From an uncultured Eubacteriales bacterium (GTDB lineage Bacteria; Acidobacteriota; Aminicenantia; Aminicenantales; Aminicenantaceae), in assembly GCA_964505785.1 (NCBI GenBank), contig CAZDJZ010000007.1, forward strand, positions 35,629 through 99,628: a stretch of DNA of 64,000 nt. Direction: 5' to 3'. The notes beneath the pieces were generated by a model that was not told where the DNA came from, made no database searches, and saw only the letters and a program-made list of their open reading frames with translations. Shown here one piece after another: positions 633-63,431 of this stretch. Each line of letters opens with the position of its first letter. Positions within the stretch are counted from its first letter, which is position 1. The position numbers and the translations under genes are program-made.

Positions 633-882
633 CCTGCCATATTCATAAAAAAATTGCGGTGTTTTTATAATTTTTCCTTTCTAGCGATATTCATGGTTTC
701 TATTAATATTCACCACAAACGTTTATTCTTTTCCCAACTTTCATTTTAACCGCAATTTTTTTACCCTTCGGGCGGGCCGAATCTCACCACATCTGCTTCG
801 TTACTCCTCCTCGGCATGAAGGACCACGCCTTCGTCGGAGTGCCTCGCATCTGCGGCAATATCGGCCCGTGAATAAGGCAGG
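633..882. repeat. A-type interspersed element (MITE-like, non-coding), full copy
   Basis: Terminal inverted repeats cctgccatattca (633-645) and tgaataaggcagg (870-882). Internal stem aaaaaaattgcgg (647-659) pairs with ccgcaattttttt (750-762) around an AT-rich loop. Colinear with the copies at 2133, 14079 and 33445. Starts immediately after the TAG stop at 630-632. Confidence 0.75.
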
Positions 883-2132: not shown

Positions 2133-2387
2133 CCTGAATCATTCATGAAAAAATTGGCGCTGCCATTTTTTCTTTTCCTTGTGACTATATTCATTGTTAA
2201 TTTAAAAACATAAATCACTACGTTCACGTTTCCTTTTTTGATCTAATTTTAATCGCCAATTTTTTCACCCTTCGGGCGGGCCGAATATCACCGCATCTTC
2301 CGGCTTGCGGCTCGTCGCAGTGAAGGGCCACGGCTTCCTCACCGCAATCCAAAATCTGCGTCAATCTCGGCCCGTGAATGATCCAGG
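2133..2387. repeat. A-type interspersed element, full copy
   Basis: Termini cctgaatcattca (2133-2145) and tgaatgatccagg (2375-2387). Internal stem gaaaaaattggcg (2147-2159) pairs with cgccaattttttc (2254-2266). Shares the cacccttcgggcgggccgaat core with the other copies. Begins 4 nt from the tsaD start codon. Confidence 0.75.
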
Positions 2388-2998
2388 ATGAGTATTCACA
2401 AAATTGGCGATGCCGTACCTTATTATACCTGACTTGAGGAATATATGAATTATTCACGCGCCATCATCCGCAAAGCGTTAATCGCAAAACGCCTAAGAAG
2501 TGAATCGTAAACCGTTAATCGTGAATGGACTGGGAATGCGTATACAATTGTTGGATACTCTGTAAAATCAACATTTTTAATTAGATAACTTTTTACTTTT
2601 CACTTTTTACTTTTCACTAGACGATGCATCATAAGATCCTTACGTCGCTTCGCTCCTCAGGACGACAATAAATAAAAAATTGTCGTCGTCTCGGCCCGTG
2701 AATGATCCAGGATGAGTATTCACAAAATTGGCGATGCCGTACCTTATTATACCTGACTTGAGGAATATATGAATTATTCACGCGCCATCATCCGCAAAGC
2801 GTTAATCGCAAAACGCCTAAGAAGTGAATCGTAAACCGTTAATCGTGAATGGACTGGGAATGCGTATACAATTGCTGGATACTCTGTAAAATCAACATTT
2901 TTAATTAGATAACTTTTCACTTTTCACTTTTCACTTTTTACTTTTCACTAGACGAGGCACCATAAGATCCTTACGTCGCTTCGCTCCTCAGGATGACA
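2365..2998. repeat. tandem duplication, two units with about 324-bp period
   Basis: The unit tctcggcccgtgaatgatccagg...cttacgtcgcttcgctcctcaggacgaca at 2365-2667 recurs at 2689-2998. The two units are near-identical. They differ by a few substitutions and by one extra cttttca unit in the second copy. Confidence 0.85.
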
Positions 2999-3101: not shown

Positions 3102-4892
3102 ATGAAAAAAGATACATTCTCCCGCCGAAATTTTATTAAAAACATCACCGCCGGAGGGGCGGCTTTATCTCTTGCCGGACCTTTCCGTTTGTTGGGACAA
3201 AAGTCCGGGGCGGATGCCATTGAGAAAAGCAACCTCTTTCATATAGACACTATTCCTGCCCAGCCGTTTTTTTCCTCTGAAAACCCGCATTATCATGCCG
3301 GCGTGGAATCGCTGATTCACCTAATGGGGACCAAGGAATTGAAACTATACCGCTCTCCGGATGAATCCCTGCTCTGCGGTCCGGATGGTATGATTGAGCC
3401 CCATGACGTTGTTTTAATCAAAGTCAATGCCCAGTGGAAATACCGCGGTGCCACCAACAGCGACCTTATCCGCGGATTGATCCAAAGAATCCTGGACCAT
3501 CCGGATGGATTCAGCGGAGAGGTGGTGATCGTGGAAAACGGCCAGGGGCGAGGCAGCCTGGCCTGTGATACGTCCACCTATAAAAATTATCCGGATGCCA
3601 AAACCCATGCCAATGCGGTCAATGAAAAACACAGTTTTCTCTATCTTGTAAACTCCATTTTTCAAGACCCTCGAGTGTCAGCTTTTCTCCTGGACCCGGT
3701 ACGGGAAACCTTTATCAGCGATCAGGACCACGTAACCAACGGCTACCGCAGCTTTGAACGGGTTTCCTACCCTTGTTTTACAACCGCCGGCGGCAACCGG
3801 GTGGAACTCAAAGAAGGCCTGTGGACCGGCAGCGGTTATACACAGAATCTCAAGCTGATCAATGTGCCCGTCCTCAAGCATCATGACCAGGGCGGGTCGG
3901 AAATAACCGGCGCTCTTAAGCATTTTTACGGCCTGGTCAGCATGCGCGACGGCCGCGTCCGCTTCCGCCATTATCTGGGGCTGGGATATACCACCGGCAC
4001 CATGATCGCTAAAGTCAGAACCCCGGTCCTGAATATTATGGACGCCATCTGGGTCTCGCATCGAACCCTGGCAGGATATCCAGAGCATACCACCTTTAAC
4101 ACCAATCAGATCACCGCGTCCCAGGACCCGGTGGCCCTGGATTACTGGACAGCCAAACACGTGCTCTATCCCATCGATCACAATGAACGCCACCACCCGG
4201 ATTTCCCTCTCATTGACCGCTGGCTGACAGACGCCCAAACCACCATCAACCAGGCAGGCGGATTGTTCCATCCGGAACACGGCATTATGGTTAAGAATGT
4301 GACGAAGAATGAAGCCCGGATGCAGGTTCACCGGGAGAACACAGAATCTCTTTCCATGTCAGGACAAGTTGTCTTAGGCGAAGACAGCGATATCCCAGGT
4401 CTGGGAGCCGTGGTTCTGTCCGGATTGCCAGGAAACCCTGAAACCAATGCCCAGGGGCATTATTCCGCAGACCTGTCTCCTGGATGGAGCGGGACGGTTA
4501 CCCCCAGAAAACCGGGGTTTTTGTTCAAACCCCAGAACCGCACTTACGACAAACTGCAGTCCGGTCTTTCCGGGCAGAATTACACCGCTTTACGGCGCAT
4601 TTACGCTCCCGCCAATTTTCAAGGTGAAAAAATCATCAACCGGGGACTGTTCCTGCAGGAAACCTTCCATAAACTAACCTGGGAAACCAATCCGGACAAC
4701 AGTCCAGCCCGTATCCGGCACTACCGGATCTACCGGCGAACCGGCGGGGTTTGGCAATTACTGCAGGAAGTGAATGCCGCGGTCACTGAATATATCCACA
4801 AACCGCAAAGCCAGGACATTTCCATGGAATATTCTCTTGCCGCCGTTAATGATTACGGCCGGGAAGGGAAAGCCGCGGTCATCACTCTGTAA
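3102..4892 (+). CDS. Tat-signal exported DUF362-like protein with C-terminal beta-sandwich (CarboxypepD_reg/Fn3-like) extension
   Basis: Twin-arginine leader FSRRNFIKNITAGGAALSLAG. DUF362-like blocks VVLIKVNAQW...VVIVENGQG and VPVLKHHDQGGSEITGALKHFYG. Ends in a roughly 180-aa extra domain. RBS-like aaaggat lies upstream. Confidence 0.6.
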   Translation: MKKDTFSRRNFIKNITAGGAALSLAGPFRLLGQKSGADAIEKSNLFHIDTIPAQPFFSSENPHYHAGVESLIHLMGTKELKLYRSPDESLLCGPDGMIEPHDVVLIKVNAQWKYRGATNSDLIRGLIQRILDHPDGFSGEVVIVENGQGRGSLACDTSTYKNYPDAKTHANAVNEKHSFLYLVNSIFQDPRVSAFLLDPVRETFISDQDHVTNGYRSFERVSYPCFTTAGGNRVELKEGLWTGSGYTQNLKLINVPVLKHHDQGGSEITGALKHFYGLVSMRDGRVRFRHYLGLGYTTGTMIAKVRTPVLNIMDAIWVSHRTLAGYPEHTTFNTNQITASQDPVALDYWTAKHVLYPIDHNERHHPDFPLIDRWLTDAQTTINQAGGLFHPEHGIMVKNVTKNEARMQVHRENTESLSMSGQVVLGEDSDIPGLGAVVLSGLPGNPETNAQGHYSADLSPGWSGTVTPRKPGFLFKPQNRTYDKLQSGLSGQNYTALRRIYAPANFQGEKIINRGLFLQETFHKLTWETNPDNSPARIRHYRIYRRTGGVWQLLQEVNAAVTEYIHKPQSQDISMEYSLAAVNDYGREGKAAVITL

Positions 4893-14078: not shown

Positions 14079-14397
14079 CCTGAATTATTCACGGGCCGAG
14101 ATTGCCGCAGACGTGAGGCGCAGGGCGTGAAGCTGTGGTCCTTCACCGCGAATGCCCTGCAGCAAAGTTTTATTGCAAGGCCTGCGAAGCAGGCCGTGGC
14201 AACCTTAGACGGACAGATTCTTAACAGCAAAGCCGTCTAAGGTCCTCACGTCGCTTCGCTCCTCCGGACCCCGCCTAAAAGGGTGAAAAATTGCGAAAAA
14301 ATAAAAATTTATTAATGAAAAACTTTCCCATGGATCTTTCTCTAAAAACCCCTCAAAAATATGCAAAAATACCGCAATTTTTTTTGAATAATCCAGG
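14079..14397. repeat. A-type element, full copy carrying a nested B-type fragment
   Basis: Termini cctgaattattca (14079-14091) and tgaataatccagg (14385-14397). Internal stem at 14284-14294 and 14373-14383. It has about 100 extra bp (14167-14268), including ccgtctaaggtcctcacgtcgcttcgctcctcc. Confidence 0.75.
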
Positions 14398-14412
14398 TTC
14401 ATTAAATTCAGG

Positions 14413-17082
14413 ATGATTATTATGTCAAAATCTATTGTCTGTCTTATCTTTTTGCTTTTGACCTCACTCGCCGGGCCGGTTTATGCCCCGGCTTCTCTTC
14501 CGCAAAATCATGACCGCACCGTTAAAGCAATCTCCCTGCATTCTCCGGTGCAAATCGATGGCCTCCTGCAAGAGCCGTGCTGGCAAAACCAAGGTTACTC
14601 AGGATTCATCCAAAGCGATCCGCTCGACGGAGAGCCAGCCACGGAAAAAACAGTAGTCTGGATTGCCTTTGACAGGGAAAATTTGTTTGTCGCCGCCCGC
14701 TTATATGACCGCTCCCCTGAAAACATCGTCAGCCGGTTGGGCCGCCGGGACGACCAGGTGGATTCGGACTGGTTTATTTTTGCCGTCGACCCATATTATG
14801 ACCGGAGAAGCGGATTTCAATTTGCGGTTAATCCAGCAGGTTCTATAATGGACAGCACTTTGTTTAATGACGAAGGCGTCGACCCAACTTGGGACGGTGT
14901 TTGGGAAAGCTCCGCCCGCAGAGATGACCAGGGATGGACAGTGGAAATGCGGATCCCTTACCATCAGCTGCGCTTTAAACCAAAAGCTGACTATATCTGG
15001 GGAGTCAATTTTTTTCGCACGATACAGCGCAAGAGTGAAAAGGATATGTATGCCTGGAAACCGAAAGAGGAAAGCGGATATGTCTCGCGGTTCGCCCCTC
15101 TGACCGGAATCCGCGATATCCATCCCGGACGCTTGATTGAACTGCAGCCGTTTTCCGTGGGTAAAGCCGGATTTCTCCGTCATGATGAAGGCGACCCCTT
15201 CAACAGCGGCCGGGAATTCACAGGAAACGCCGGCTTTGACTTTAAAGCCGGTCTACAGAGTAATCTCACTTTAAATATGACAGTCAATCCTGATTTCGGT
15301 CAGGTTGAAGTGGACCCCGCGGTTATCAATATTAGCGACCAGGAAACATACTATCAGGAGAAACGCCCGTTCTTTATTGAAGGCGCGGATATTTTCCGGT
15401 TCGGATACGGCGGGGCCAACCAGGTCCGGAATCTGGGATGGAGGAATCCCAGCTTCTTTTACAGCCGCCGCATCGGCCGGGCCCCGCAAGGATTCCCTTC
15501 GACCTCCGGTTACGTGGATGCGCCGGAGTGGTCCACTATTCTAGGTGCTGCAAAAATAACCGGAAAAATCGGAAACGGTTGGAACATCGGTTTTATGGAT
15601 GCCTTGACTCAGCGGGAATTCGCGGCCATAGATGAAAGCGGACAGCGCGCACAGCAGGAGATCGAGCCTTTTACCCATTACGGTGTTTTTCGCGCTCAAA
15701 AGGATTTCAAGGAGGGGCACCAGGGTTTGGGCCTTATTGCAACCTCAGTCATTCGGGATCTAAAGAACAGCCCTTTGGAACTCACTCTCACCAGCAGTGC
15801 GCATAGCCTGGCTCTTGATGGATGGACATTTTTGGACCAGGACCGTACCTGGGTCGTAACCGGCTGGCTGGGCGGCACGCGGGTGACCGGAACATCCGAT
15901 GCGATGACCCGCCTGCAGAAATCTTTCCTCCATTATTTTCAAAGACCCGATGCCGGCCATGTTTCAGTGGATGAAAATGCCGCTTCCCTTAACGGCTGGG
16001 CCGGCCGGATTTTTATCAATAAGCAAAAGGGCCGCCTGGTCTTCAACACCGCACTGGGTGCCATCTCTCCCGGTTTTAATGCTATGGATATGGGATATCA
16101 TTCCCGGGGAGACCTGATCAACGGACATGCTGAAGCCGGATATCAATCCTTTCATCCCGGCAGCCTGTTCCGCGACTGGAAAATCACCATGTCCACACAC
16201 CGGGGATATGATTTCACGGGGCATAAAACCGACGAATACTATAATTTCAATGCTTTCGCAAGATTTTTAAATTATTGGAGCGTAAATTTCTATTTAAGCT
16301 ACGACCCGAACCGGTACAACCACAATTTAACCCGCGGGGGACCGATGAGTCTTTATCCATGGGGATTCAGCCGGAGTCTGAGCGTCAGCAGCGACAACCG
16401 GAAACACGTGGTCTTTTCCCTGTCCGCTTTCTACCGAACCCATCCCTACGGCGCCTATAATTATTCATTCCGCGGAGGAATTTTGTGGAAAGCCCGTTCA
16501 AATTTGAGCTTATCCGTCGGCCCCAGCTATACCTGGCGCCATTCCTGCGGACAATGGGTCACGCGAATTCAAGATCCTCTTAAAACAGAAACGTACGGAA
16601 CCCGCTATATTTTCTCAGATATCATCCAGGAAACTCTCCCCGTGGAAATCCGGATTAACTGGACTTTTACTCCCAAACTCAGCTTACAGGCCTATCTGCA
16701 GCCCTTTTTAGGGGCAGGAGACTTTTTCAGATTCAAAGAATTAAAGGCCCCGCGGACATTTGATTTTCTGTTTTTCGGTGAGGACAATGTGTCAACGATC
16801 GATAAAGAGGGAGGCTTGTACACGGTCGATCCTGACGGCCCGGGTCCGGCACAGGCTTTTTCCTTCCGGGATCCGGACTTTAACCTCAAATCCATGCGCG
16901 GGACCGTGGTTCTGCGCTGGGAATACAGCCCCGGGTCCACCATTTATGCGGTATGGACCCAAAACCGCTGGGACGCATCCAACCCCGGAGACTTCGACCT
17001 GGGCCGCGATTTGGCCGACCTGCTTCAGGCCGGCGGCGATCATGTCTTTTTGTTCAAGATGAACTACCGCTTCACTTTTTAG
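14413..17082 (+). CDS. outer-membrane protein, CBM9/DOMON-like N-terminal domain plus DUF5916-like beta-barrel
   Basis: Signal peptide. VWIAFDRENLFVAARLYD...WDGVWESSARRDDQGWTVEMRIPY is CBM9-like. Long beta-rich C-terminal region ending NYRFTF (OMP-type terminal Phe). The ATG at 14422 has better RBS spacing and may be the true start. Confidence 0.75.
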   Translation: MIIMSKSIVCLIFLLLTSLAGPVYAPASLPQNHDRTVKAISLHSPVQIDGLLQEPCWQNQGYSGFIQSDPLDGEPATEKTVVWIAFDRENLFVAARLYDRSPENIVSRLGRRDDQVDSDWFIFAVDPYYDRRSGFQFAVNPAGSIMDSTLFNDEGVDPTWDGVWESSARRDDQGWTVEMRIPYHQLRFKPKADYIWGVNFFRTIQRKSEKDMYAWKPKEESGYVSRFAPLTGIRDIHPGRLIELQPFSVGKAGFLRHDEGDPFNSGREFTGNAGFDFKAGLQSNLTLNMTVNPDFGQVEVDPAVINISDQETYYQEKRPFFIEGADIFRFGYGGANQVRNLGWRNPSFFYSRRIGRAPQGFPSTSGYVDAPEWSTILGAAKITGKIGNGWNIGFMDALTQREFAAIDESGQRAQQEIEPFTHYGVFRAQKDFKEGHQGLGLIATSVIRDLKNSPLELTLTSSAHSLALDGWTFLDQDRTWVVTGWLGGTRVTGTSDAMTRLQKSFLHYFQRPDAGHVSVDENAASLNGWAGRIFINKQKGRLVFNTALGAISPGFNAMDMGYHSRGDLINGHAEAGYQSFHPGSLFRDWKITMSTHRGYDFTGHKTDEYYNFNAFARFLNYWSVNFYLSYDPNRYNHNLTRGGPMSLYPWGFSRSLSVSSDNRKHVVFSLSAFYRTHPYGAYNYSFRGGILWKARSNLSLSVGPSYTWRHSCGQWVTRIQDPLKTETYGTRYIFSDIIQETLPVEIRINWTFTPKLSLQAYLQPFLGAGDFFRFKELKAPRTFDFLFFGEDNVSTIDKEGGLYTVDPDGPGPAQAFSFRDPDFNLKSMRGTVVLRWEYSPGSTIYAVWTQNRWDASNPGDFDLGRDLADLLQAGGDHVFLFKMNYRFTF

Positions 17083-17361
17083 CTTTAATTTAGTTCGAAA
17101 TGAGTAAAAAGTAAAAAGAGAAAAGTTATCTCAAATCTGAAATTTGAAATCTGAAAAACATATCGATGCAGATTGCAAAAATCGTGTTTTTTTTAAATTT
17201 CTCCGGGCGAGGAGAGAATTCAATCGCCGCTGATAAAACCTGCTGTCAATAACCCTGAAACATTCAGGTAACTATAGTTTCTCTTGAAAATATCTGTTAA
17301 TTTAATACAATACTTAAATAATTCCTACTTGGAAGCGGGATGAAACGATTCGACAAAATAC

Positions 17362-24370: not shown

Positions 24371-24480
24371 CCTGGATTATCCAGCCTGGCTTATTTCATA
24401 GCCTTAACTATTCATCAAAAAATTGTGATATTTTTGCAATCTTTTTGTTATCATCGATAAACATGCTTTTAGAAAAGGAT
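24371..24480. repeat. A-type element, degenerate half copy (AT-rich arm)
   Basis: cctggattatcc...ttcatcaaaaaattgtgatatttttgcaatctttttgttatcatcgataaacatgcttttagaaaagga is colinear with 47451-47530. Confidence 0.5.
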
Positions 24481-30669: not shown

Positions 30670-33444
30670 TTGAACAGAAATCACCGCATTATCGCCAGCA
30701 CTTATGTCATTATCTTTTTTCTTTTATTAGGTACGATCTTGCCCCTTTCCGGGCAGACCATTACCGCGCCTAAGCATCATTTCGGCCATGATATTGGAGA
30801 TGATTATTGGCTGGCTACTTATTCCCAATTAATGGAGTACTGGGAAATTTTAGCCCGGGAATCGGACCGTATGATCCTGGAAGAAATCGGAACCACTGAG
30901 GAAGGCCGTCCCATGCTGATGGCGGTCATCACCTCTCCCGAAAATCACGCCCGGCTGGCCGACTACAAAACCATCGCCCGCCGCCTGGCTCTGGCTGAAG
31001 ACTTGGAAGAGGAAGAAGCTCGGAAACTGGTCCAAACCGGCAAGGCCGTAGTTTGGATAGACGGCGGCCTTCACGCAACCGAAGTGGTGGGCGCCCAGCA
31101 GGAACTGGAGCTTGTTTATCAAATGGTCAGCCGCAGCGACCGGGAAACTCTCCGCATTCTGGATAATGTAATTCTGCTGACACTTATCACTAATCCGGAT
31201 GGAATGGATCTTGTCGGCGAATGGTACATGCGGACGCCCCAGCCGGAAGAACGGTCGACCAGTAATCTCCCCCGGCTTTACCAGAAATATATCGGGCATG
31301 ACAATAACCGCGATTTTTATATGGTAACCCAAAAAGAAACCGAAGCCATCAACCGGATCTTATACCGGGAATGGTTTCCACAAATCGTATACAATCATCA
31401 TCAAACCGGCCCGGCGGGCTGTGTTTTGTTTGCTCCGCCGTTCCGTGATCCGCACAGTTATAATTATGATCCGCTGCTGGTCACCGGCATCACCACCGTC
31501 GGCAATGCCATGCACACCCGGTTTGCAGCGGAAGGAAAGCCGGGGGCCACTATGCGCGAAGGAGCCTGGTATCAAACCTGGTGGAACGGCTGCCTTCGAT
31601 GCACTCCCTATTTTCATAATATGATCGGAATTCTGACCGAAATAATCGGCAACCCCACGCCGATCGAGATTCCATTTATTCCGGAAAAACTGCTCCCGGA
31701 CAGCGATTATCCCTTTCCCATTGCCCCGCAAAAATGGCATATGCGGCAGTCTATCGATTATTCGATTACCGCTGACCGGGCTATTTTAGACCTGGCCGCC
31801 AAGCGCAAGGAAGATTTTCTCTACAATATTTTCCGCATGGCAAAAAATTCCATTGAACGGGGGAGCCGGGATCACTGGACTCTCAACCCCCGCCGGATTG
31901 AAGCGGTACAGAAGGCTATTAAAACGGATGAGGCCGAAATGGAAGGCTCAGGACGTTCCAGGGGATATCCACCCGAGTATTATGAGAAGGTCCTTCATGA
32001 CCCTGCTCATCGCGACCCCAGAGGATTTATCCTTTCCGCCGACCAGCCGGATTTTCTCACCGCGGTTAAATTCGTCAACACTCTCATTAAAAACGGAGTC
32101 AAGGTGCACCGGGCGATTGAGGATTTTGAAGCTGCCGGGAAAACTTATCCGGCCGGTTCGCTGGTGGTTAAATGCAATCAGGCTTTCCGGCCCCATATAA
32201 TGGATATGTTTGAACCTCAGTTTTATCCCGACGATATCCAATACCCGGGCGGGCCTCCCCGGCCTCCTTATGACAGCGCAGGATACACTCTGGCTTATCA
32301 GATGGGTGTGGAATTCGACAGGATTTTAGATGGCTTTGGCGGGCCCTTCGAAGAAATAGCCGGAGTCATGGCTCCGCCTGCGGGGAAAATCATCCAGCCC
32401 GATGCGGAAGGATTTTTGCTCAATCCAAGGCTGAATGACACTGTCATCGCAATTAACCGGCTGCTGAAAAACGGCACCCCGGTTTTCCGGACCGTCCGGG
32501 ACATTGAGCATAATGGAATTTCCTATCCTCCGGGAACGATATATATTCCAACAACCGGAGCCACCCTGGATATCATCCGTTCTGCGGCCGAAGAAAAAGG
32601 GCTGGTCTTCGAAGGAGTCGATTTTAATACTCCTCCGGCCATGATGAATATTCATGCCGTCCGGGTGGGATTATGGGACCAATACGGAGGATCTATGGCT
32701 TCCGGCTGGGTTCGGTGGCTTTTAGAACAGTACGAATTTGATTTTGATGTGGTTTATCCCCCGCAGCTCGATGCCGGCGGATTGAAAGAGGATTTCGACG
32801 TTTTGATTTTTGTGGACCGGGCCATTCCAGGCACGGATGAAGATGAATCCCGCTATCGCCGCTATGCGCCCATTGAGCCGGAGGGAATTCCGGAGAAGTA
32901 CCGGGGGCGGCTCGGCCGCATCACAACAGAGACCACCATTCCCCAATTGCAGCGCTTTATGGAAGCCGGAGGAACCATTCTCACCATCGGCAGTTCAACC
33001 GGTCTGGCTTATCACCTCGGCCTTCCGGTAGAAAATGCACTGGGTGAAAAAACTGAAGAAGGCGAAGTTGAACCCTATCCTATGACGAAATTTTTCATAC
33101 CCGGTTCCGTTCTTAAAATCAAAGTGGATAACACACATCCGCTCGCGTTCGGCATGCCTGAACACATCGATGTGTATTTCAACCGCAGTCCGGTCTTCCG
33201 GCTGCTGCCGGAATCACACAACCGGGTGAATGCCGTGGCCTGGTTTGACAGTCCGGATCCGCTCCGCAGCGGATGGGCCATGGGCCGGCAATTTCTGGAG
33301 GGAGGAGCCGGAGTATGCGCAGCCGAAGTCGGAAAAGGCCGCCTGGTGATGTTCGGCCCGGAAATCACGTTCCGCGCCCAGCCGCATGGAACCTTTAAAT
33401 TCCTCTTTAACGGAATATATTTAGGCGGAATCAAGAATAACTAA
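30670..33444 (+). CDS. M14-family zinc carboxypeptidase-like protein, large secreted form
   Basis: TTG start with GGAGG RBS, signal peptide, Zn-binding IDGGLHATEVVG (HxxE) and NPDG, plus about 600 aa of additional C-terminal domains. Confidence 0.8.
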   Translation: MNRNHRIIASTYVIIFFLLLGTILPLSGQTITAPKHHFGHDIGDDYWLATYSQLMEYWEILARESDRMILEEIGTTEEGRPMLMAVITSPENHARLADYKTIARRLALAEDLEEEEARKLVQTGKAVVWIDGGLHATEVVGAQQELELVYQMVSRSDRETLRILDNVILLTLITNPDGMDLVGEWYMRTPQPEERSTSNLPRLYQKYIGHDNNRDFYMVTQKETEAINRILYREWFPQIVYNHHQTGPAGCVLFAPPFRDPHSYNYDPLLVTGITTVGNAMHTRFAAEGKPGATMREGAWYQTWWNGCLRCTPYFHNMIGILTEIIGNPTPIEIPFIPEKLLPDSDYPFPIAPQKWHMRQSIDYSITADRAILDLAAKRKEDFLYNIFRMAKNSIERGSRDHWTLNPRRIEAVQKAIKTDEAEMEGSGRSRGYPPEYYEKVLHDPAHRDPRGFILSADQPDFLTAVKFVNTLIKNGVKVHRAIEDFEAAGKTYPAGSLVVKCNQAFRPHIMDMFEPQFYPDDIQYPGGPPRPPYDSAGYTLAYQMGVEFDRILDGFGGPFEEIAGVMAPPAGKIIQPDAEGFLLNPRLNDTVIAINRLLKNGTPVFRTVRDIEHNGISYPPGTIYIPTTGATLDIIRSAAEEKGLVFEGVDFNTPPAMMNIHAVRVGLWDQYGGSMASGWVRWLLEQYEFDFDVVYPPQLDAGGLKEDFDVLIFVDRAIPGTDEDESRYRRYAPIEPEGIPEKYRGRLGRITTETTIPQLQRFMEAGGTILTIGSSTGLAYHLGLPVENALGEKTEEGEVEPYPMTKFFIPGSVLKIKVDNTHPLAFGMPEHIDVYFNRSPVFRLLPESHNRVNAVAWFDSPDPLRSGWAMGRQFLEGGAGVCAAEVGKGRLVMFGPEITFRAQPHGTFKFLFNGIYLGGIKNN

Positions 33445-33697
33445 CCTGAATTATTCACGGGTCGAGATTGCCGCAGATGCGAGGCGCAGGGTATGAAGCT
33501 GTGGCACTTCACCGCGAATGCCCTGCAACAAAGCAGATGCGGTGAGATTCGGCCCGCCCAAAAGGGTGAAAAATTGCGATTATAATATAAATATGAAAAT
33601 GAAAAACTTTCAATTTGAACTTTCAATAAAAACCATATTAATTGTTGATAAAAAAGGAATTACAAAAATATCGCAATTTTTTTATGAATAATTCAGG
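33445..33697. repeat. A-type element, best-preserved full copy
   Basis: Termini cctgaattattca (33445-33457) and tgaataattcagg (33685-33697). Internal stem aaaaattgcgat (33569-33580) pairs with atcgcaattttt (33670-33681). It fills nearly the whole spacer between the TAA at 33442-33444 and the ATG at 33705. Confidence 0.8.
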
Positions 33698-33704
33698 CTA
33701 AGCA

Positions 33705-35252
33705 ATGAAAAAACCAGGGGAAATAAACAGGCGGGAATTCGTCCGTAATGCCGCTGTTATGCTCGCAGCCGCTGAAGTCGGCCTCAGCGGAGCCGGCAGG
33801 CTGTGGGGGGAAAAAAGTAAACCGCCGCAGAACAAATCAGCGGGGACTGACCTCCCGCTGATCGGTATTCAAATGGGCCCGCATACCATGCTGGAGGAAG
33901 GGATCGAGCATGTCCTCGATCTGATTAAAAATACGGCCGCTGTCAATACGGTTTTAGTATACAGCCACACCTATCATTCTTATTTGGACAAACCGCTTTC
34001 CTGGCTGGTTCCGGATCACGGCACTCCTCTCAAAAAGCTAAAAGGACGGCGTTTCCCTTCGGTTTGGGTAAAGCATCACGATAAATATTTCAAGGACACA
34101 ATATTGCGGCATCAGGCAGTGGACCAAAGTCATGAATACGCCGGCCGTGATCTCCTGCACGAAATAACGGTGCCTGCCCGCGACCGGGACATGAAAGTCT
34201 ATGCCCGTATCCTGGAAGGCGCCGGCCCCCTGCCGGCGGAAAGAATCGAAAATTACTTAAAAACGGTCACCATTGATGTATATGGCCGCCCGACCCGGGT
34301 GTCTTGCTGGAATAACCCCGATTATATCAGCTTTTGGACCGCCACAATGGAAGATCTTTTTCGTAACTATGACCTGGATGGTATCCAATGGGGTGCCGAA
34401 CGGATGGGCCCGCTTATGAACGTTATTATGCCCTGGAATGATACGCCTCCCGCATGTTTTTGTGAGCACTGCCGCGCCCGCGGAAGAGAAAAAGGTATTG
34501 ATGTGGAAAAAGCCAGGGAAGGATTTGCAAAGCTCTATGAATATGTCCGCAGACTAATGGGGGGCAAACCCAAACCTCCAGAAGGCGTCTTCACTGTTTT
34601 CCTGCGCCACCTCCTGCAGTATCCGGAGATTCTGGCCTGGGAATACCAATACCGTCTCTCACGGGAAGAAATCATGCAAGCCATGTACGGAACGATAAAG
34701 GCCATCAAACCGGATGCTGAAGTAGGCTGGCATGTGGACCACCAGCCTTCAAGCTGGGACATTGTGTACCGCGCCGAACTCAGCTATGCGGACATGGCTC
34801 CCTATTCCGATTTTATCAAATTTATTGCTTATCATGACGTTCTTGGGCCACGCATAAGATGGTGGTATCTGGAGCGATTAAAAAACACCGTCCTCAGCGA
34901 GTTATCCCTGAAACAGTCACTGGACCTCTATTACGATTTATTCGGGTATGACAAAAAAAATGAGCCCGGTGTGGACGAACTTGAAGAAAAAGGATTTTCT
35001 CCGGATTATGTTTTCCGCGAAACTAAACGGAGTGTGGCTTCCGCCGCCGGAAAAACAAAAATTTACCCCGGTATCGGTTTTGATGTGCCCTGGGCTGCAG
35101 AACATATTCCAGCTGACCCCGATGAAGTGTATTCAGCTGTGATTAAAGCCTTTGAGGCCGGAGCGGACGGGATTGTCATATCCAGAGAATATGAGGAAAT
35201 GCGGATTCCGAACCTCAAGGCCGTGGGCCGGGCCGTACGGGATAAATTTTAG
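33705..35252 (+). CDS. Tat-signal exported hypothetical protein (possibly TIM-barrel glycoside-hydrolase-like)
   Basis: Twin-arginine leader INRREFVRNAAVMLAAA. Contains a CFCEHC cysteine motif. The fold call is a guess. Confidence 0.55.
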   Translation: MKKPGEINRREFVRNAAVMLAAAEVGLSGAGRLWGEKSKPPQNKSAGTDLPLIGIQMGPHTMLEEGIEHVLDLIKNTAAVNTVLVYSHTYHSYLDKPLSWLVPDHGTPLKKLKGRRFPSVWVKHHDKYFKDTILRHQAVDQSHEYAGRDLLHEITVPARDRDMKVYARILEGAGPLPAERIENYLKTVTIDVYGRPTRVSCWNNPDYISFWTATMEDLFRNYDLDGIQWGAERMGPLMNVIMPWNDTPPACFCEHCRARGREKGIDVEKAREGFAKLYEYVRRLMGGKPKPPEGVFTVFLRHLLQYPEILAWEYQYRLSREEIMQAMYGTIKAIKPDAEVGWHVDHQPSSWDIVYRAELSYADMAPYSDFIKFIAYHDVLGPRIRWWYLERLKNTVLSELSLKQSLDLYYDLFGYDKKNEPGVDELEEKGFSPDYVFRETKRSVASAAGKTKIYPGIGFDVPWAAEHIPADPDEVYSAVIKAFEAGADGIVISREYEEMRIPNLKAVGRAVRDKF

Positions 35253-39935: not shown

Positions 39936-40199
39936 GTCGTCCTGAGCGAAGCGACGGATCTCATGCTGCCTCGTTTTGAAAGAGCAAAGAGTGAAGAGTA
40001 AGAAGTTATCTTATTAAATCAAAAATCAAATATCAAAAATCAAAAATAAACCAAAGCCGAATAGGAAATCGGGGAATTTATTTAAATTGAATGCACCGAA
40101 CAGACTGAATAGACCGAATAGACTAAAAGAACGCGATGAACGCGCGCGCAGCTAACGCAGCCGTCTAAGATTCCCGTCGCTCTGCTCCGGGAATGACAT
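39936..40199. repeat. B-type interspersed mosaic element, full copy
   Basis: Left end gtcgtcctgagcgaagcgacggatctcatgctgcctcg; right end ccgtctaagattcccgtcgctctgctccgggaatgacat (inverted). Block-by-block colinear with 53753-54022. Preceded by an isolated A-type terminus cctggctattcat (39907-39919) directly after the TAG stop. Confidence 0.75.
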
Positions 40200-40299
40200 G
40201 GGGAGACGAGCGAAGCGAGCATGACCTGGACAGACGCAGATGGACTAGATGCAAACAGCACTTTAAAAGCCGTCAAATTTCCTATAAAATGAACGGCAT

Positions 40300-44292: not shown

Positions 44293-44398
44293 CCTGAATT
44301 ATTCACAGGCCGGGATTGCCGCCAAATGTGAGGCGCAGGGCAGGATGCATTCGTTCTTCAGGACAAATGCCCGGCAAAAAAGCAGATGCGGCGAGAGA
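44293..44398. repeat. A-type element, GC-rich half copy
   Basis: cctgaattattcacaggccgggattgccgc...agcagatgcggcgagagata is colinear with 33445-33550. The second terminus is missing. Confidence 0.6.
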
Positions 44399-44411
44399 TA
44401 AGGAGTTCACA

Positions 44412-47400
44412 TTGAAAAAGAATGCAACGCATGTTTTTTCTGCAGTGCTGTTATTTATATGCTTATCCGGATTGTCATTTCCGCAGCCTTCGCTGAACGG
44501 GTCTTTGTCCGGAAAAGTTTTGGATTCAGACGGGAATCCGTTGTCTGATGCCACAATCATGATAAAAGGTCCGGCCATGCAGGGACTTCAGATTTATGTA
44601 ACCGATGATTCCGGTGCTTTTTATTTTTCTTCACTACCTCCCGGAATTGATTACACCATCCGGATTGAAAAACCGGAATATACAACCATGATATATCCCG
44701 GTATTTCCCTGGATATGGGACACCGCCTTCATTTGAAGGTCACCCTGAAAGCTTCAAGTATGGAACAGGAAGCAGTTGTTCATGATCCCCCTGTCTGGAC
44801 GGATACCCAAAGCAGCAAAACTTCTTTTTCCATAGCCCGGAGCTTTCTTGAGCATATTCCCCTTTCCCGTGATCTTCAGGACATGCGGAAGACCGCTCCC
44901 GGATCGGTTCCCTCCGGTCCTGTATACCGGGGGCACACTTTGTTCGCCGGATCATCTGTTCATAATATCATCTATTCGGTTGACGGGATTGTCCTTAACG
45001 ACCCTTTGGATATGCATCCGATGACTCCGGTCAATCCGGATGTTTTTGAAGAAATCGAATTCGGTTCGGCCGGACTTCCTCCTTCCATGAATGCTGCCGG
45101 CGGCGGCTATATAAACGTCCGGTCCCGCAGCGGAGATAATACAGTCACAGGAAACCTCCACGCAGAATATATGGATAAACAACTCCAGCAGGTTTTGCTT
45201 GATACCAAAGAACTAAAGGCCGCAGGTTTGGAACGTCCGTCTGATTTGATACGAAGGATGGATCTTTCTTTCACTTTCGGAGCACCGATTCTGCAGGACT
45301 TTGCCTGGCTTTTCGTTAATACCCGGTATTTAACATGGAAACAAAATTTTAATCACGTCGATTGGGAGTCTACCCAGTCGACCGGAAAAAATGTTTTCAC
45401 AGGAGACTCCGCACCTCACAAACAGTTTACTGTTTTCGGGAAACTAACCATGCGTCCGGTTTCTTACGGCCGCGGCAGCATTACCTATAATCTGGCATCC
45501 ATAACCGAAGATTTTTATATCCCTGCAATTCAGCATAATTCAGATCTGTCCGCACTGAGCCGCTGGAACGGAGAGATCGATCAAACGTTCGGAGTCAACG
45601 GAGAATGGATTCAGTCACAAAACTTTTCTCTCAGTGGGCAAGTGTCGTATTCGTACCGCAATTTTCCATTATCCTACAGTGATTCTTCGCTGCCCAATGA
45701 ACCTCGCATATATGACCGCTATTATCAAATATACACCAATAACGCTGAATTTGAACAAATTTTCAGGCGGCAGCGGCTTAATCCTTCTGTCTTTCTTTCT
45801 TTGTTCGTGGACCGATTTATGGGCGGCCGCCACCAAATTATTTTGGGAGCGGACTATGAATGGGCCGCCAATAATTGGAATTATTGGCGGACAAACCCTT
45901 TCATGATCCATTACTATCAAGGCAGTCTCTACGCTTACCCCACGGATAACGAACCCTTCCGGACCAAGCTGTTCGCATACACATCCGGGCAATTCAGTAA
46001 AAGTACAATTCAGAAAAATGAAAAAAACGCTGTCGGCGCTTTTATTCAAGACAGCATTACATTCGCCGGCCGAATAACATTTAATTTAGGATTGAGGTTA
46101 AACTTCAGCAGCGGGTTTCATCCCGATCAATTCCATGGCCAGGCTTATGATCAGTACGAAATTTTTGAAGTTCTTCCCGGGCTGGAGTCCCAATATGATT
46201 ATTACAAAGTCAACAGCCGCAATGTTTTGACCTGGTTTAATTTATCTCCCCGGCTGGGATTCGCTTTTGATATCTTCGGTAACGGCCGAACCGTTCTTAA
46301 AGGAAACTATGCCCGTTACCATGATTATATGCACCTCGGCTACCTCAGCAATGTCAATCCATTTGCTCCTCAGCTTAGTTCCTGGTACTGGGTCGATGAT
46401 AACGAAAACAAAGTCCCTGATAAAGAAGACCGCTTCGACCTTATTGACGCCGCCGACGATCCGGAAACTTTATCCCTGGAGGATAACCTTGATACGGAAG
46501 CCTATTCTCCGCATACAGAAGAATTTTCAGCAGGAATAGAACACGAGCTTTTCAGGGATTTTAACTTGGGCCTGTCCTTCATTTATAAGCATCAAAAAAA
46601 CCTTCTGGAAGACGTTAATGATTACGGATTGGGACAAGAGGAAGCCTGGAAAGGATACCGTTCAGACAGTCCCTTCTGGGAAGAATTCGCTTTCACCGAC
46701 CCGGGTGAAGATGGTGAGTTCGGAACCTCCGACGATTCCACAGCAGTGTGCTTTGCGGAGACCGCCGCCTCACCCGGAGGCAGGCATTGGTATTTTATGA
46801 ATATTGAGGATGCCTACCGTAAATATACGGCTGTCGAGCTGGTCTTGAATAAACGCATGTCTCATAATTGGCAGCTGCTGGCCTCATTTGTATGGAGCCG
46901 GGCTTGGGGTAACGTGGATGGAGGCTCCTACGCTTCATCCGGTTTTTCAAATGCGTTCAACACGCCTAATCAAACTCTTTTCTCAGGAGGCCGGCTGGAT
47001 TATGACCGCCCGATAAATATTAAAATAATGGGATCGGTCATTCTTCCGTATGATTTTATCGCCAGTGCTTTTTACCAATACTATTCCGGTATTCCTTGGA
47101 ACCGGACAATCACGGTCACTATTCCTGAAGATGACAAATATTTCGATCCCGGAGCCGTTTACACCGTGGCAACGGAAGAAAAAGGTTCCCGGAGAACATC
47201 GCCCTTTTCCATGCTCGATTTCCGGCTGGAAAAATCATTTCAGGTTTCCGGAGATCTGGCGATCGGAGGATATGTAGACGTGCTGAATGTATTAGGGCAG
47301 AGCCGCCTGCATGTAGAATCAAGTGCCGGAGGGTTTCTGGATTACAGCGATCCCGGCAACCCGGTCTTTCAGCCTTATGGAAATTCCGGAGACATCTTTG

Positions 47401-47450
47401 ACGCCACCGGCGTTCGGACGGTTCGGTTCAGTCTCCGCCTCTCTTTCTAA
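44412..47450 (+). CDS. TonB-dependent-receptor-like outer-membrane beta-barrel with N-terminal CarboxypepD_reg domain
   Basis: TTG start 6 nt after the AAGGAG at 44400-44405. Signal peptide LLFICLSGLSFPQ, then GKVLDSDGNPLSDATIMIKG (CarboxypepD_reg). About 900 aa of beta-rich sequence ending FSLRLSF. The longest ORF (from 44316) would read through the repeat. Confidence 0.75.
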   Translation: MKKNATHVFSAVLLFICLSGLSFPQPSLNGSLSGKVLDSDGNPLSDATIMIKGPAMQGLQIYVTDDSGAFYFSSLPPGIDYTIRIEKPEYTTMIYPGISLDMGHRLHLKVTLKASSMEQEAVVHDPPVWTDTQSSKTSFSIARSFLEHIPLSRDLQDMRKTAPGSVPSGPVYRGHTLFAGSSVHNIIYSVDGIVLNDPLDMHPMTPVNPDVFEEIEFGSAGLPPSMNAAGGGYINVRSRSGDNTVTGNLHAEYMDKQLQQVLLDTKELKAAGLERPSDLIRRMDLSFTFGAPILQDFAWLFVNTRYLTWKQNFNHVDWESTQSTGKNVFTGDSAPHKQFTVFGKLTMRPVSYGRGSITYNLASITEDFYIPAIQHNSDLSALSRWNGEIDQTFGVNGEWIQSQNFSLSGQVSYSYRNFPLSYSDSSLPNEPRIYDRYYQIYTNNAEFEQIFRRQRLNPSVFLSLFVDRFMGGRHQIILGADYEWAANNWNYWRTNPFMIHYYQGSLYAYPTDNEPFRTKLFAYTSGQFSKSTIQKNEKNAVGAFIQDSITFAGRITFNLGLRLNFSSGFHPDQFHGQAYDQYEIFEVLPGLESQYDYYKVNSRNVLTWFNLSPRLGFAFDIFGNGRTVLKGNYARYHDYMHLGYLSNVNPFAPQLSSWYWVDDNENKVPDKEDRFDLIDAADDPETLSLEDNLDTEAYSPHTEEFSAGIEHELFRDFNLGLSFIYKHQKNLLEDVNDYGLGQEEAWKGYRSDSPFWEEFAFTDPGEDGEFGTSDDSTAVCFAETAASPGGRHWYFMNIEDAYRKYTAVELVLNKRMSHNWQLLASFVWSRAWGNVDGGSYASSGFSNAFNTPNQTLFSGGRLDYDRPINIKIMGSVILPYDFIASAFYQYYSGIPWNRTITVTIPEDDKYFDPGAVYTVATEEKGSRRTSPFSMLDFRLEKSFQVSGDLAIGGYVDVLNVLGQSRLHVESSAGGFLDYSDPGNPVFQPYGNSGDIFDATGVRTVRFSLRLSF

Positions 47451-47596
47451 CCTGAATTATTCATAAAAAAATTGCGATATTTGCAATTTCTTTTTTATCA
47501 GCGATTAACATGTTTTTTAGAGAAGGACCCATGGGACAGTTTTTCATTAATAACTTTTTATTTTTTCGCAACTTTCCACCCCTCCGGGCGGGGGGC
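47451..47596. repeat. A-type element, AT-rich half copy
   Basis: cctgaattattcataaaaaaattgcgat...ttcgcaactttccacccctccgggcgggggg. Starts directly after the TAA stop at 47448-47450. Confidence 0.6.
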
Positions 47597-52263: not shown

Positions 52264-52352
52264 TGGTGCGGAAGGTGGGACTCGAACCCACACGGCCTTT
52301 TGGGCCATAAACTCCTGAGGCTTACGCGTCTACCAGATTCCGCCACTTCCGC
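52264..52352 (-). tRNA. tRNA-Leu (anticodon CAG), CCA encoded
   Basis: The reverse complement reads GCGGAAGTGGCGGAATCTGGTAGACGCGTAAGCCTCAGGAGTTTATGGCCCAAAAGGCCGTGTGGGTTCGAGTCCCACCTTCCGCACCA. It has a 7-bp acceptor stem, an anticodon loop CTCAGGA, a long variable arm and a GTTCGAGTC T-loop. It is very similar to the E. coli tRNA-Leu(CAG) layout. Confidence 0.9.
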
Positions 52353-52585
52353 ACAAAAGCTTCGCGATTTGACATTATAGCGATATATGCAGATGCTGTA
52401 AAGTGAAAAGATACTTGACAAATATTACATCCGGCGTATCTTTAAAATGCGTGAGCAATTCCCCAAAATTATTCCCAGTAATGAACATCTGTCTTTTTTC
52501 CGGACAATACAATTCTCTGCTTTTATTTTTCCACTCGGCGGGCAACCTAAGTCTAATAAGGTCCCAGCCTTTTTTAGGAGGACAT

Positions 52586-53737
52586 ATGAAATTATTAAAC
52601 CAGGGACAACTCGAATCTCTCTCAAGATTCCGCAGCCGGAAACTTCCCATGATTTCCTTATTTCTCGATACCAGCCGCAACCGTCTTTCCAAGAAAGAGA
52701 TTCAAATTTCCCTCAAAAATTTGCTTCAGCATGGAAGGTCGAGGCTGAATCAAATGGATTTTTCCAAATCAGAAAAGGAATTCTTATCAAAGGAACTTGA
52801 TAAAATCGGCGCATACTGTTCACGCCGTCTTCCCGGTTATAAGTATGTTGGGATGGCGGTTTTCAGCTCTACAAAAGATGATTTCTGGCAAGATTTCGAA
52901 TTGGTAAAATCCCCGCGGAATATGATTATTTTTGACCAATCTCCATATGTGCGTCCCCTTTCTGCTGTTCTGGATGAATACCACCGGATTTGTGTTGTTA
53001 CATCCGATAAAAAATCCGCAGCTTGGTATGGCGTGTACATGGGAGAAATCACCCGGCTTGAAACTCTTTCCGGGAAAGATGAGCCCCAGCCGCGGGAATC
53101 AGGCCGGGAAGAATATAGTTCCAAGCGGATTGAACGCCATATAAATTCGATTCAGCACAGTCATTTTAAAAAAGCGGCGAAAACCACCTTTGATTTATGG
53201 AAACAGCATAAATTCGAGTGGCTTTTCATGGGAATTCCTGATAAATATGTCCCTGAATTTGAATCCCTTCTGCATCCATATATTAAAAAGAGCATTAAGG
53301 CCCGCATTAAAATAAAGCCCCAAGACTCTATGTCAAAAATCCTATCCAAAACTTTAGAGTTGAAACAAAAATTAAAAGAAGATGAGAGGAATGAAATTGT
53401 TAAGCGTTTTATAAAGGAATCCCATAAAGACGGTCTGGCGGTTGCCGGATTGGAACCAACCCTGAATAAACTGAACCGGGGTGAAATACAAACAATGCTT
53501 GTTACCCGATTTTTTTCTCAGCCGGGGATGCAATGCCCGGAATGCGGTTTTCTTTATCTTACCCGGAAAACCTGTTCCGTCTGCCATAAACCGACAGAAA
53601 AAGTTATGGACATCGTTGACCATGCGGTGGAAAACGCTTTGAACTCAAGCTGCCGGGTCAAGCACATCAGTCCGCCCTCTGATCTGGATGCTTACGGGAA
53701 AATCGGCGGTTTTCTCCGCTATAAAACGACGACCTGA
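52586..53737 (+). CDS. bacterial archaeo-eukaryotic release-factor-like protein (aeRF1/Pelota/Vms1-like, baeRF family) with C-terminal zinc ribbon insert
   Basis: Start at the ATG at 52586 after a taggagg RBS. ISLFLDT, SPYVRPL and VVTSDKKSAAWYGVY blocks. DGLAVAGLEPTLNKLNRGEIQTMLV resembles eRF1 domain 3. CPECG...CSVCH is a Zn ribbon. The C-terminal end is GKIGGFLRY. Confidence 0.55.
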   Translation: MKLLNQGQLESLSRFRSRKLPMISLFLDTSRNRLSKKEIQISLKNLLQHGRSRLNQMDFSKSEKEFLSKELDKIGAYCSRRLPGYKYVGMAVFSSTKDDFWQDFELVKSPRNMIIFDQSPYVRPLSAVLDEYHRICVVTSDKKSAAWYGVYMGEITRLETLSGKDEPQPRESGREEYSSKRIERHINSIQHSHFKKAAKTTFDLWKQHKFEWLFMGIPDKYVPEFESLLHPYIKKSIKARIKIKPQDSMSKILSKTLELKQKLKEDERNEIVKRFIKESHKDGLAVAGLEPTLNKLNRGEIQTMLVTRFFSQPGMQCPECGFLYLTRKTCSVCHKPTEKVMDIVDHAVENALNSSCRVKHISPPSDLDAYGKIGGFLRYKTTT

Positions 53738-53752
53738 ACTATTGACACACTG

Positions 53753-54022
53753 TGTCATCCTGAGGGCTGCGAAGCAGACCGCAAGGATCTTGTGCTGCCT
53801 CGCCTTAAAGAAGTGAAGAGTAAATCAAAGATCAAAAAAAATCCAAAGCCGAATAGGAGATCGGGGTCTTTATTTAAATTGAATGGACCGAACAGACTGA
53901 ATAGACAAAGACAAACCTGGAAAGACCCAGATGGACTAATATAAGCTAAAAGAACGCGAAGAACGCGAGCGAAGCGAGCAAGACCGCCTAAGATTCCCGT
54001 CGCTGCGCTCCGGGAATGACAT
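53753..54022. repeat. B-type interspersed mosaic element, full copy
   Basis: gtgtcatcctgagggctgcgaagcagaccgcaaggatcttgtgctgcctcg...ccaaagccgaataggagatcgggg...tttatttaaattgaatggaccgaacagactgaatagac...aaaagaacgcgaagaacgcgagcgaagcgagc...cgcctaagattcccgtcgctgcgctccgggaatgacat. Confidence 0.75.
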
Positions 54023-54072
54023 GGGGTCAACCGCAAGCGCGCAGCCAGCCGGGTGAACAGATCGAATTGCGG

Positions 54073-60681: not shown

Positions 60682-60799
60682 TGTCGTCTCGAGGAGCGGA
60701 GCGACGAGGGATCTCATAGTGCCCCGTATGGACAAAATGGAGATACTGTCCTGCAGAAACGATGCAGCCTGAGATCCTGCGCTTCGCTCAGGATGACAT
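60682..60799. repeat. B-type element, short copy
   Basis: tgtcgtctcgaggagcggagcgacgagggatctcatagtgccccg on the left and gagatcctgcgcttcgctcaggatgacat on the right, in inverted orientation. Confidence 0.6.
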
Positions 60800-60910
60800 T
60801 AGATGCGGTAAGATCCACCCCGCCCAAAGGGTTAAAAATGGCGATTAAAATATGAATAAAAAAGGAAAAAGATTAATAAATCGGCATCGCCATTTTTTAT
60901 TATGAACAAT
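60800..60910. repeat. A-type element, partial copy with shortened loop
   Basis: agatgcggtaagatccaccccgcccaaagggtt core. Stem aaaaatggcgat (60834-60845) pairs with atcgccattttt (60886-60897). Terminus-like tatgaacaatc abuts the xerD stop codon. Confidence 0.55.
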
Positions 60911-63350: not shown

Positions 63351-63431
63351 ATAATTCACATCTCATCCGGCACCGTAATTGCATAGATTTTGAGATTTGA
63401 GATTTAAGTATTATCAAATTATAATTACATT

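Follow-up and report, generated by a model that had tools for sequence, protein, structure and literature searches.

A miniature mobile repeat of uncultured Aminicenantes with a multi-stem fold, likely maintained on one strand

The stretch of DNA analyzed here (contig CAZDJZ010000007.1, positions 35,629 to 99,628), indicated throughout as the window, is 64 kb long and carries ordinary genes, coding for a GDSL lipase, LepA, peptidases, an RND efflux operon, a XerC/D-type recombinase and others. Genes were identified by scanning 40 of the 41 longest open reading frames (ORFs) against Pfam, and tsaD by homology; no transposase, RAYT, TnpB or reverse transcriptase is found among the 41. The same DNA contains eight copies or fragments of a non-coding mobile repeat, here called the A-element. 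Its canonical form is 250–255 bp long, while the copies span 157–449 bp. A core pattern of 17 bases is matched five times in the window, and never in 100 shuffles. Copies are always intergenic, may lie in either orientation, and include nested and mosaic forms; no ORF of at least 80 aa is present within the canonical copies c1, c2 and c4.

The strand that folds better, carrying the GC-rich half at its 5' side, is called "sense". Copy c1 (633..882, minus strand) is full length, 250 bp, with the GC-rich end at 882 and the AT-rich end at 633 on the better-folding strand. Its termini are cctgccatattca, starting at 633 (633–645), and tgaataaggcagg, starting at 870 (870–882). An A/T stem pairs 647–659 with 750–762 and encloses an AU-rich loop (660–749), and a small CCC..GGG hairpin and a GC-rich rod occupy approximately 763–869. 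When folded by RNAfold, c1 reaches -97.4 kcal/mol (z -9.6) on the minus strand and -70.8 kcal/mol (z -4.9) on the plus strand. Copy c2 (2133..2387, minus strand, 255 bp) is also full length, with termini cctgaatcattca at 2133 and tgaatgatccagg at 2375; its internal stem (2147–2159 with 2254–2266) features one additional G/C pair. The AT end of c2 lies 3 nt from the start codon of tsaD, with the terminal CAGGA in a ribosome-binding-site-like position. A 324-bp tandem duplication (2365–2618 and 2689–2942, 98% identical) begins within the GC end of c2, so that the final 23 nt of this end are found again at 2689..2711 (minus strand). The duplication also contains a degenerate second AT end (…ATTCACAAAATTGGCGATGCC…) and runs of the heptamers ACTTTTC and ACTTTTT.

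The other two copies bearing both termini are inverted relative to c1 and c2. Copy c3 (14079..14397, plus strand, 319 bp; termini cctgaattattca at 14079 and tgaataatccagg ending at 14397) is a composite, where about 95 nt of a second hairpin-forming repeat (..GTCGCTTCGCTCC..) are found in place of the 3' arm of the GC-rich rod; its AT end is located 16 nt upstream of ORF 14413..17082. Copy c4 (33445..33697, plus strand, full length, 253 bp) has perfectly complementary termini (cctgaattattca at 33445, tgaataattcagg ending at 33697), CTAA on either side, and its internal stem at 33569 and 33670. The stop codon of ORF 30670..33444 immediately precedes it, and its end lies 8 nt ahead of ORF 33705..35252.

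The remaining copies are partial. Copy c5 (44293..44396, plus strand) consists of the 5' half only, a left terminus and a degenerate GC-rich rod, just upstream of a TonB-dependent-receptor-like gene; c7 (47451..47592, minus strand) is a 3' half with small hairpin, A/T stem, loop and right terminus, the latter beginning directly after the stop codon of ORF 44316..47450. Copy c6 (60801..60905, plus strand) is a 3' half with a short loop, a decayed terminus and a G-C variant of the internal stem (60834–60845 with 60886–60897). A terminal fragment of about 70 nt, from an AT end, is found at 24402..24470 (minus strand), and further terminus-like 11–13-mers continue to 24371. All the repeat strings quoted in the original prediction were found to be correctly located, including the internal stems at 647/750, 2147/2254, 33569/33670 and 60834/60886. 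A perfect 15-bp palindrome, CCTGAAACATTCAGG, is also present at 17254..17268 (no strand assigned), with TAA on both flanks; it resembles two joined terminal half-sites, and may be a minimal derivative or an excision remnant.

Copy c6 is located at the 3' end of the XerC/D-type tyrosine recombinase gene (60911–61813). The corresponding region of the metagenome-assembled genome (MAG) JAWODN01, about 76% identical (L003, 889–1047), also holds a copy: here the internal stem is T-A, where the window has the G-C variant. Either an old insertion, followed by compensatory change in place, or the repeated use of one site may be seen behind this difference.

About 45 copies were collected: 8 from the window, about 30 from JAWODN01, 5 from the MAG CAYRTV01 and 4 from the metagenome Ga0207797. 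The ends of 29 full-length copies are 13-bp imperfect terminal inverted repeats, CCTGnnnTATTCA (CCTG-nnn-TATTCA), where positions 1–4 and 9–10 are near-invariant (28–29 of 29) and positions 8 and 11–13 are conserved in 23–24 of 29. Identical 4-nt flanks are found in 7 out of 27 full copies, versus 2.6 when flanks are permuted (p = 0.004). Among the seven duplications, four (TTAT, TTAA, CTTC, CTAT) differ from the consensus, versus 0.55 expected (p = 0.0005); one further copy features a 5-nt duplication, ATGAA. CTAA is the most frequent flank, with TTAA and TTAG next; together they describe a YTAR-like target, which frequently coincides with a stop codon or a gene edge (a stop codon in c4, c1 and c7).

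Each terminus holds a small palindrome, TGAAT-n-ATTCA (633–645, 14079–14091, 33445–33457, 63346–63358, 2444–2456). Isolated palindromes of this type occur away from the elements, such as CGTGAATAATTCACA at 63346, and have the shape that a dimeric protein-binding site would have. The idea of a dif/Xer site was considered and rejected, since 1 nt separates the halves of the terminal palindrome and the recombinase in the window is a conserved XerC/D-type gene. Runs of terminus-like 11–13-mers (…ATAGGTCAGG…, …CCTGACTTATTCC…), with a period of 13–17 nt, are found at 14385–14420 and 24371–24414 and, in related contigs, at L098 3937–3990, L063 5390–5440 and L064 3230–3271. These runs immediately adjoin the outer side of element ends, in many cases a short way upstream of start codons, and are possibly stacked solo ends or binding sites.

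Both flanks of tsaD show insertion polymorphism. Where tsaD and an 810-aa gene converge, their junction is 4 nt long in contig L188; the window has c1 at this junction, which measures 495 nt, and contig L189 a copy of opposite orientation, in a junction of 414 nt. Upstream of tsaD, at the site of c2, an orthologous copy is present in L227 (97% identity) and a terminal stub in L229, while the element is absent in L228 (91%); the outgroup L191 (70% identity) has no A-element at either end of tsaD. In three composite copies of 383 bp (L005, L014, L102a), the second hairpin repeat is nested at the apex with the duplications intact, indicating that these composites moved recently. Deletion derivatives also occur: the GC-rich rod is missing in L106b and L113b, the AT loop in L070 (2317) and L188.

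In a scan of one genome per species, true copies are almost confined to JAWODN01, the MAG "Candidatus Aminicenantes bacterium BLK5-2.bin.174" (at least 25 loci), to CAYRTV01, and to the stray contigs L106 and L019. A metagenome scan of 241 million records with the specific core pattern returned 70 matches: four are true copies, all from one sample, and the rest are due to chance. A scan of viral contigs for a terminus followed by TAA gave 35 matches, about the chance number for a 16-mer, none of them, among the few loci inspected, with an element interior. Judging from these sequences, only a narrow clade of uncultured Aminicenantes (Acidobacteriota) carries the A-element. Window genes are 74–79% identical, at the DNA level, to those of JAWODN01 and of the tsaD-orthologue contigs L188 and L189; on this ground the window is assigned to an uncultured bacterium of Aminicenantes type. 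No exact match to the window TsaD protein is on record, and homologues were used instead. The closest TsaD proteins are 97–81% identical and, with the exception of P0003 and P0005, come from contigs of 1.1–1.6 kb (P0001, P0002, P0004, P0006, P0007). The ends of contigs L227 to L229 fall within or beside A-element-type repeats; in the public tsaD contigs of 1.1–1.3 kb (L227, L228, L229, L190), ends in or beside repeats are seen on both sides of tsaD. A-elements are probably a major cause of MAG fragmentation in this clade.

The 4-bp duplications, together with the 13-bp terminal inverted repeats, indicate a staggered double-strand cut. The A-element would be moved in trans by a DDE-type transposase encoded elsewhere in the genome. 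IS5-group and IS1380/piggyBac elements duplicate 4 bp (4–5 bp for IS1380) at YTAR- or TTAA-like targets; the ends of IS1380 and piggyBac begin with CC, as those of the A-element, while IS5 ends begin with GG or GA. An IS5-group or IS1380/piggyBac-like transposase is a guess, suggested by target and CC.. ends, because no autonomous element with matching termini was found in the window or in the related loci. The search looked for inverted termini 0.7–3 kb apart and for repeats of at least 450 bp shared among loci.

When single copies are folded, one strand reaches z-scores of -8.6 to -10.6; the other strand, folded likewise, is weaker in 10 of the 11 copies free of interruptions. The RNAalifold consensus of these 11 copies contains 58 pairs, arranged in four stems. 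P1 is the closing stem, formed by both termini. The GC-rich rod, P2, extends over about 100 nt; it includes an apical hairpin, a tandem G·A internal loop, and U·G and G·U pairs that are invariant. P3 is a small hairpin in which CCC pairs with GGG (3 bp), and P4 is an A/U-rich stem of 13–15 bp that closes an AU-rich loop of about 95 nt. Compared pairwise, copies are 82% identical in P1 and 90–96% in P2, P3 and P4; the values are 72% for the apical part and 63% for the loop. At gathering thresholds Rfam recognizes only a tRNA; for c4, permissive thresholds gave only chance-level matches at E ~8–10.

The original prediction claimed compensatory covariation at the termini and in the internal stem. 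For the structure as a whole, covariation is real. In the 11 uninterrupted copies, 96.7% of 637 cells (a cell being one pair in one copy) form standard pairs, versus 93.2±0.5% in shuffles; ten pairs are changed on both sides, versus 4.8±1.2 (none of 500 shuffles reaches the observed value). When partners are slid by 1–3 columns, just 40–47% of cells pair. Single arms were taken by anchored pattern matching, as MAFFT alignment of 30 full copies misplaced the left arm of insertion-bearing ones. The best single pair is located in P2, where columns 21 and 106, 85–300 nt apart, are A-U in nine and G-C in seven of 17 distinct arm pairs, with one exception. This pair has the top mutual information (MI) of 300 polymorphic column pairs, while column 105, adjoining 106, segregates independently. 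The structural pairs rank 1, 7, 9, 47, 58, 163 and 284 among the 300 (Mann-Whitney p = 0.016). Whole stems are also replaced: the apical stem is found in three unrelated sequences, all pairing (GCAGGGCAU/AUGCCCUGC, GGGUUGCGGC/GCCGCAACCC and ACUCC…GGAGU), and the divergent copy L019 keeps a P4 re-coded at five positions on both sides (GAAAAATTTTATC / GATAAAATTTTTC for …TTGCGAT / ATCGCAA…).

At the termini, covariation is significant but leaky, and the claim holds up moderately. At positions 5–8 of 29 copies, 96 cells are paired, versus 87.1±3.2 when arms are permuted (29 of 10000 permutations). Matched variants include AAT/ATT, ACC/GGT, GAT/ATC, GCT/AGC and GCC/GGC, yet many copies combine ends that do not match, and complementarity is imperfect in c1 (one T/T), c2 (one G·T) and c3 (one A·C). 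In the larger set of copies, the paired positions still do not vary independently. The change from T to G matched by A to C, described for the internal stem, stands less firmly. About 23 copies are T-A, 9 G-C, 5 G-A and 2 T-C (7, 3, 4 and 1 of the 15 distinct arm pairs); the arms pair more often than under whole-arm permutation (p = 0.04), but the MI of this P4 pair is no stronger than the background linkage among subfamilies.

Complementary changes at the ends of a transposon cannot, alone, separate RNA structure from protein recognition. Co-varying termini had been taken as an argument against a transposase, a weak premise: the same protein reads both ends, which are therefore expected to change together between subfamilies. 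The informative signals are two: G·U and A·C are unequal in number, and folding energy differs between strands. Over the whole structure, non-Watson-Crick cells are G·U in 59 cases (16 columns, 3 of them invariant) and A·C in 5 (5 columns); at the termini of the 29 copies, the corresponding numbers are 28 and 4. The sense strand, folded independently, is more stable in 10 of the 11 uninterrupted copies, by 3–28 kcal/mol. Among all 28 copies, sense is more stable in 18 and antisense in 10, the exceptions being mostly composites with nested repeats. A protein that reads two symmetric duplex sites would not be expected to produce this asymmetry, and neither would a cruciform, whose two strands must both fold. 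A single-stranded fold agrees with it, in RNA or in one DNA strand. The suggestion that covariation reflects selection on a folded RNA, or on single-stranded or cruciform DNA, is accordingly retained for a single-stranded fold, in view of the G·U excess and of the ten double-changed pairs, and disfavored for the cruciform. Compensatory changes and the excess of G·U over A·C indicate that a fold is likely maintained on the sense strand, as a constrained single strand. Read-through RNA is favored over single-stranded DNA, because the target duplications imply a staggered double-strand cut.

On balance, and with moderate confidence, the A-element is read here as a MITE (miniature inverted-repeat transposable element), a non-autonomous transposon of about 250 bp, one strand of which keeps a multi-stem fold, most plausibly through read-through RNA. 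Transcription of neighboring genes would read through the element; copies whose transcript collapses into a compact structure would survive best, and this structure may direct processing of the flanking mRNAs or affect their stability. Such a role is known for bcr1, ERIC and Correia elements.

Several observations weigh against this reading. Copies share ancestry and recombine, so that compensatory events that can be counted as independent are few. The MI of the P4 pair (0.471) equals that of P2 column 21 with P4R column 87, two unrelated columns, and the P4 pair could thus be attributed to subfamily linkage. The strand asymmetry is lost in composite copies, and is in part inherited from a single ancestor. 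Perfect duplications are kept by only about one fourth of the full copies, and neither the window nor related loci totalling about 250 kb yielded an autonomous element with the same termini. Finally, orientation relative to neighboring genes shows no significant bias (23:15 and 17:11), while a role at the RNA level would predict one. The AT end faces the 5' end of a gene 23 times and the 3' end 15 times, nearly always at most 60 nt from the gene boundary; between co-directional genes, 11 copies are sense and 6 antisense.

The same data may be explained with no selection on a fold. A sequence built of inverted repeats, amplified as a few subfamilies, mixed by mosaic recombination and perhaps repaired arm to arm in fold-back DNA, would also show paired changes. 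The linkage of unrelated columns, as high as that of the structural pair in P4, the commonness of mismatched recombinants (the G-A and T-C copies), the modest P4 permutation value among distinct arm pairs and the loops, which define lineages common to different stem variants, all go in this direction. This explanation leaves out, however, the excess of G·U over A·C (59:5 and 28:4) and the advantage of 3–28 kcal/mol for one strand in 10 of 11 canonical copies. It also does not account for three unrelated apical stems that all pair, for a P2 column 21 that tracks column 106 across 85–300 nt while its neighbor 105 segregates independently, or for the fully re-coded P4 stem of L019. We consider it unlikely.

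That the fold is itself a functional product appears improbable. The A-element would then be a mobile gene whose product, a structured RNA of about 250 nt, forms a three-way junction that the element's termini close and acts in trans or in cis, for instance as cofactor or regulator of the transposase; or it would be a domesticated punctuation module, spread by transposition, which would end the upstream message and set up expression of the downstream gene. A related proposal is that of a dispersed family of functional non-coding RNA genes or cis-regulatory leaders, whose AT-rich part would be a promoter or ribosome-binding site for the downstream gene. The fold conserved on one strand is in agreement with it, as is the AT end, which lies within 60 nt of a gene boundary nearly always and, in 23 cases out of 38, faces a 5' end; a further point is the CAGGA at the terminus of c2, 4 nt ahead of the ATG of tsaD. 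Mobility, in contrast, is shown by target duplications, insertion polymorphism and occurrence in both orientations; flanking genes are functionally unrelated, and 15 copies face gene 3' ends. A scan of c4 found no outward sigma-70 consensus and no intrinsic terminator, the only promoter-like site being antisense and located in the loop, and no Rfam family is matched beyond chance level, even at E <= 10. We give this proposal little credence.

Still less support is left for transposition of single-stranded DNA by a hairpin-recognizing enzyme, either of the REP/BIME-REPIN and RAYT type or of the IS200/IS605 Y1 type, with the stems as substrate, a mechanism suggested by the original prediction. 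Tolerance of G·T on one strand fits folded single-stranded DNA as well, and compensatory changes are frequent in REPIN hairpins (Bertels and Rainey, PMC3116915). The A-element resembles REP, BIME and REPIN sequences in being intergenic, hairpin-forming, clustered and mosaic, with BIME-like nesting. REPINs, however, are tied to a RAYT gene and have neither transposon-type terminal inverted repeats nor target duplication, while the A-element has both; its unit is 250 bp rather than a palindrome of 20–40 nt, and no Y1_Tnp or RAYT gene is found among the 40 window ORFs scanned against Pfam. IS200/IS605-derived (PATE-like) elements feature subterminal hairpins and insert 3' of a fixed tetranucleotide, in contrast to the terminal inverted repeats and varying duplications seen here. 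Elements mobilized by Y1 transposases (IS200/IS605, RAYT) are not known to have terminal inverted repeats or to produce target duplications. Because terminal inverted repeats of 13 bp and true 4-bp duplications are present, the A-element is not filed with either group, and such a mechanism is quite improbable.

Very improbable is an inverton, in which the 13–15-bp internal inverted repeats would be recombinase sites around a promoter segment of about 95 bp, recombination keeping the arms identical: length and spacing of the repeats are typical and a tyrosine recombinase gene adjoins c6, but all AT loops in the alignments (30 copies) share one orientation relative to the asymmetric flanks, no loop appears inverted in the further copies listed, the recombinase gene, of the XerC/D type, is conserved and has its orthologue in L003, and the arms tolerate G-A and T-C mismatches.

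The structured MITE favored here has counterparts in other phyla. ERIC/IRU elements of enterobacteria and Correia/NEMIS elements of Neisseria are MITEs, whose terminal inverted repeats pair in read-through mRNA; ERIC and Correia elements are located near gene ends, in both orientations, and can carry promoter or ribosome-binding-site-like ends. No sequence match between them and the A-element was found. They differ from it in forming essentially one long hairpin of 100–150 nt, and Correia elements duplicate TA, whereas the A-element features separate internal stems and a 4-bp YTAR-like target. In the Bacillus cereus group, bcr1 is about 155 bp long, is flanked by 5-bp direct repeats and is transcribed, and its cruciform-like RNA structure is kept by compensatory changes (Delihas review, PMC3184786). 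Like bcr1, the A-element is a small, non-coding, interspersed repeat with short direct repeats, a distribution not conserved between relatives and a fold involving the whole element. The two are unrelated in sequence, and the A-element is longer (250 bp), makes 4-bp rather than 5-bp duplications, belongs to another phylum and has a three-way architecture with a large AU-rich loop; transcription has been shown for bcr1 and is predicted for the A-element. By such comparison, bcr1, ERIC and Correia elements are the closest analogues. The A-element is a known kind of element, a structured MITE, in a new lineage, and introduces no new principle unless its RNA has a function of its own.

Other repeats accompany the A-elements. 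The second hairpin-forming family, centered around GTCGCTTCGCTCC / GGAGCGAAGCGAC, has 10 matches in the window versus 1.2 expected, with sites at 1039–1124, 2620–2667, 2950–2998, 14240–14270, 39943–40219, 53941–54026 and 60690–60800. It has inverted pairs of its own, such as GTGTCATCCCCGG…CCGGGATGACAC between tsaD and c1, and is nested in the apex or in the 3' arm of A-elements (c3, L005, L031). Arrays of a 9-nt unit (GACCGAATA / GACTGAATA) are found at 991–1033, 40072–40132 and 53864–53915, always adjoining the second family; their flanks are conserved, positions 40032–40114 being 92% identical to 53824–53906. Between the GDSL-lipase gene and tsaD, a gene for a 596-aa protein with a DUF362 domain is located at 3102–4892. 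In L188 nothing but repeats separates the GDSL-lipase gene from tsaD, indicating that gene order has been rearranged next to the repeat cluster. A tRNA-Leu(CAG) gene (52264–52352, minus strand) adjoins a gene (52403–53737, plus strand) for a 444-aa protein with a domain of the bacterial archaeo-eukaryotic release-factor family 10 (baeRF).

For annotation, the A-element accounts for a large share of the intergenic DNA of the window and, by extension, of that of the lineage. The expression of housekeeping genes is probably influenced by the copies, which lie right against start and stop codons. If they are transcribed, hundreds of copies, with several re-coded stems, would form a natural data set on how selfish DNA is kept structurally harmless or is co-opted.

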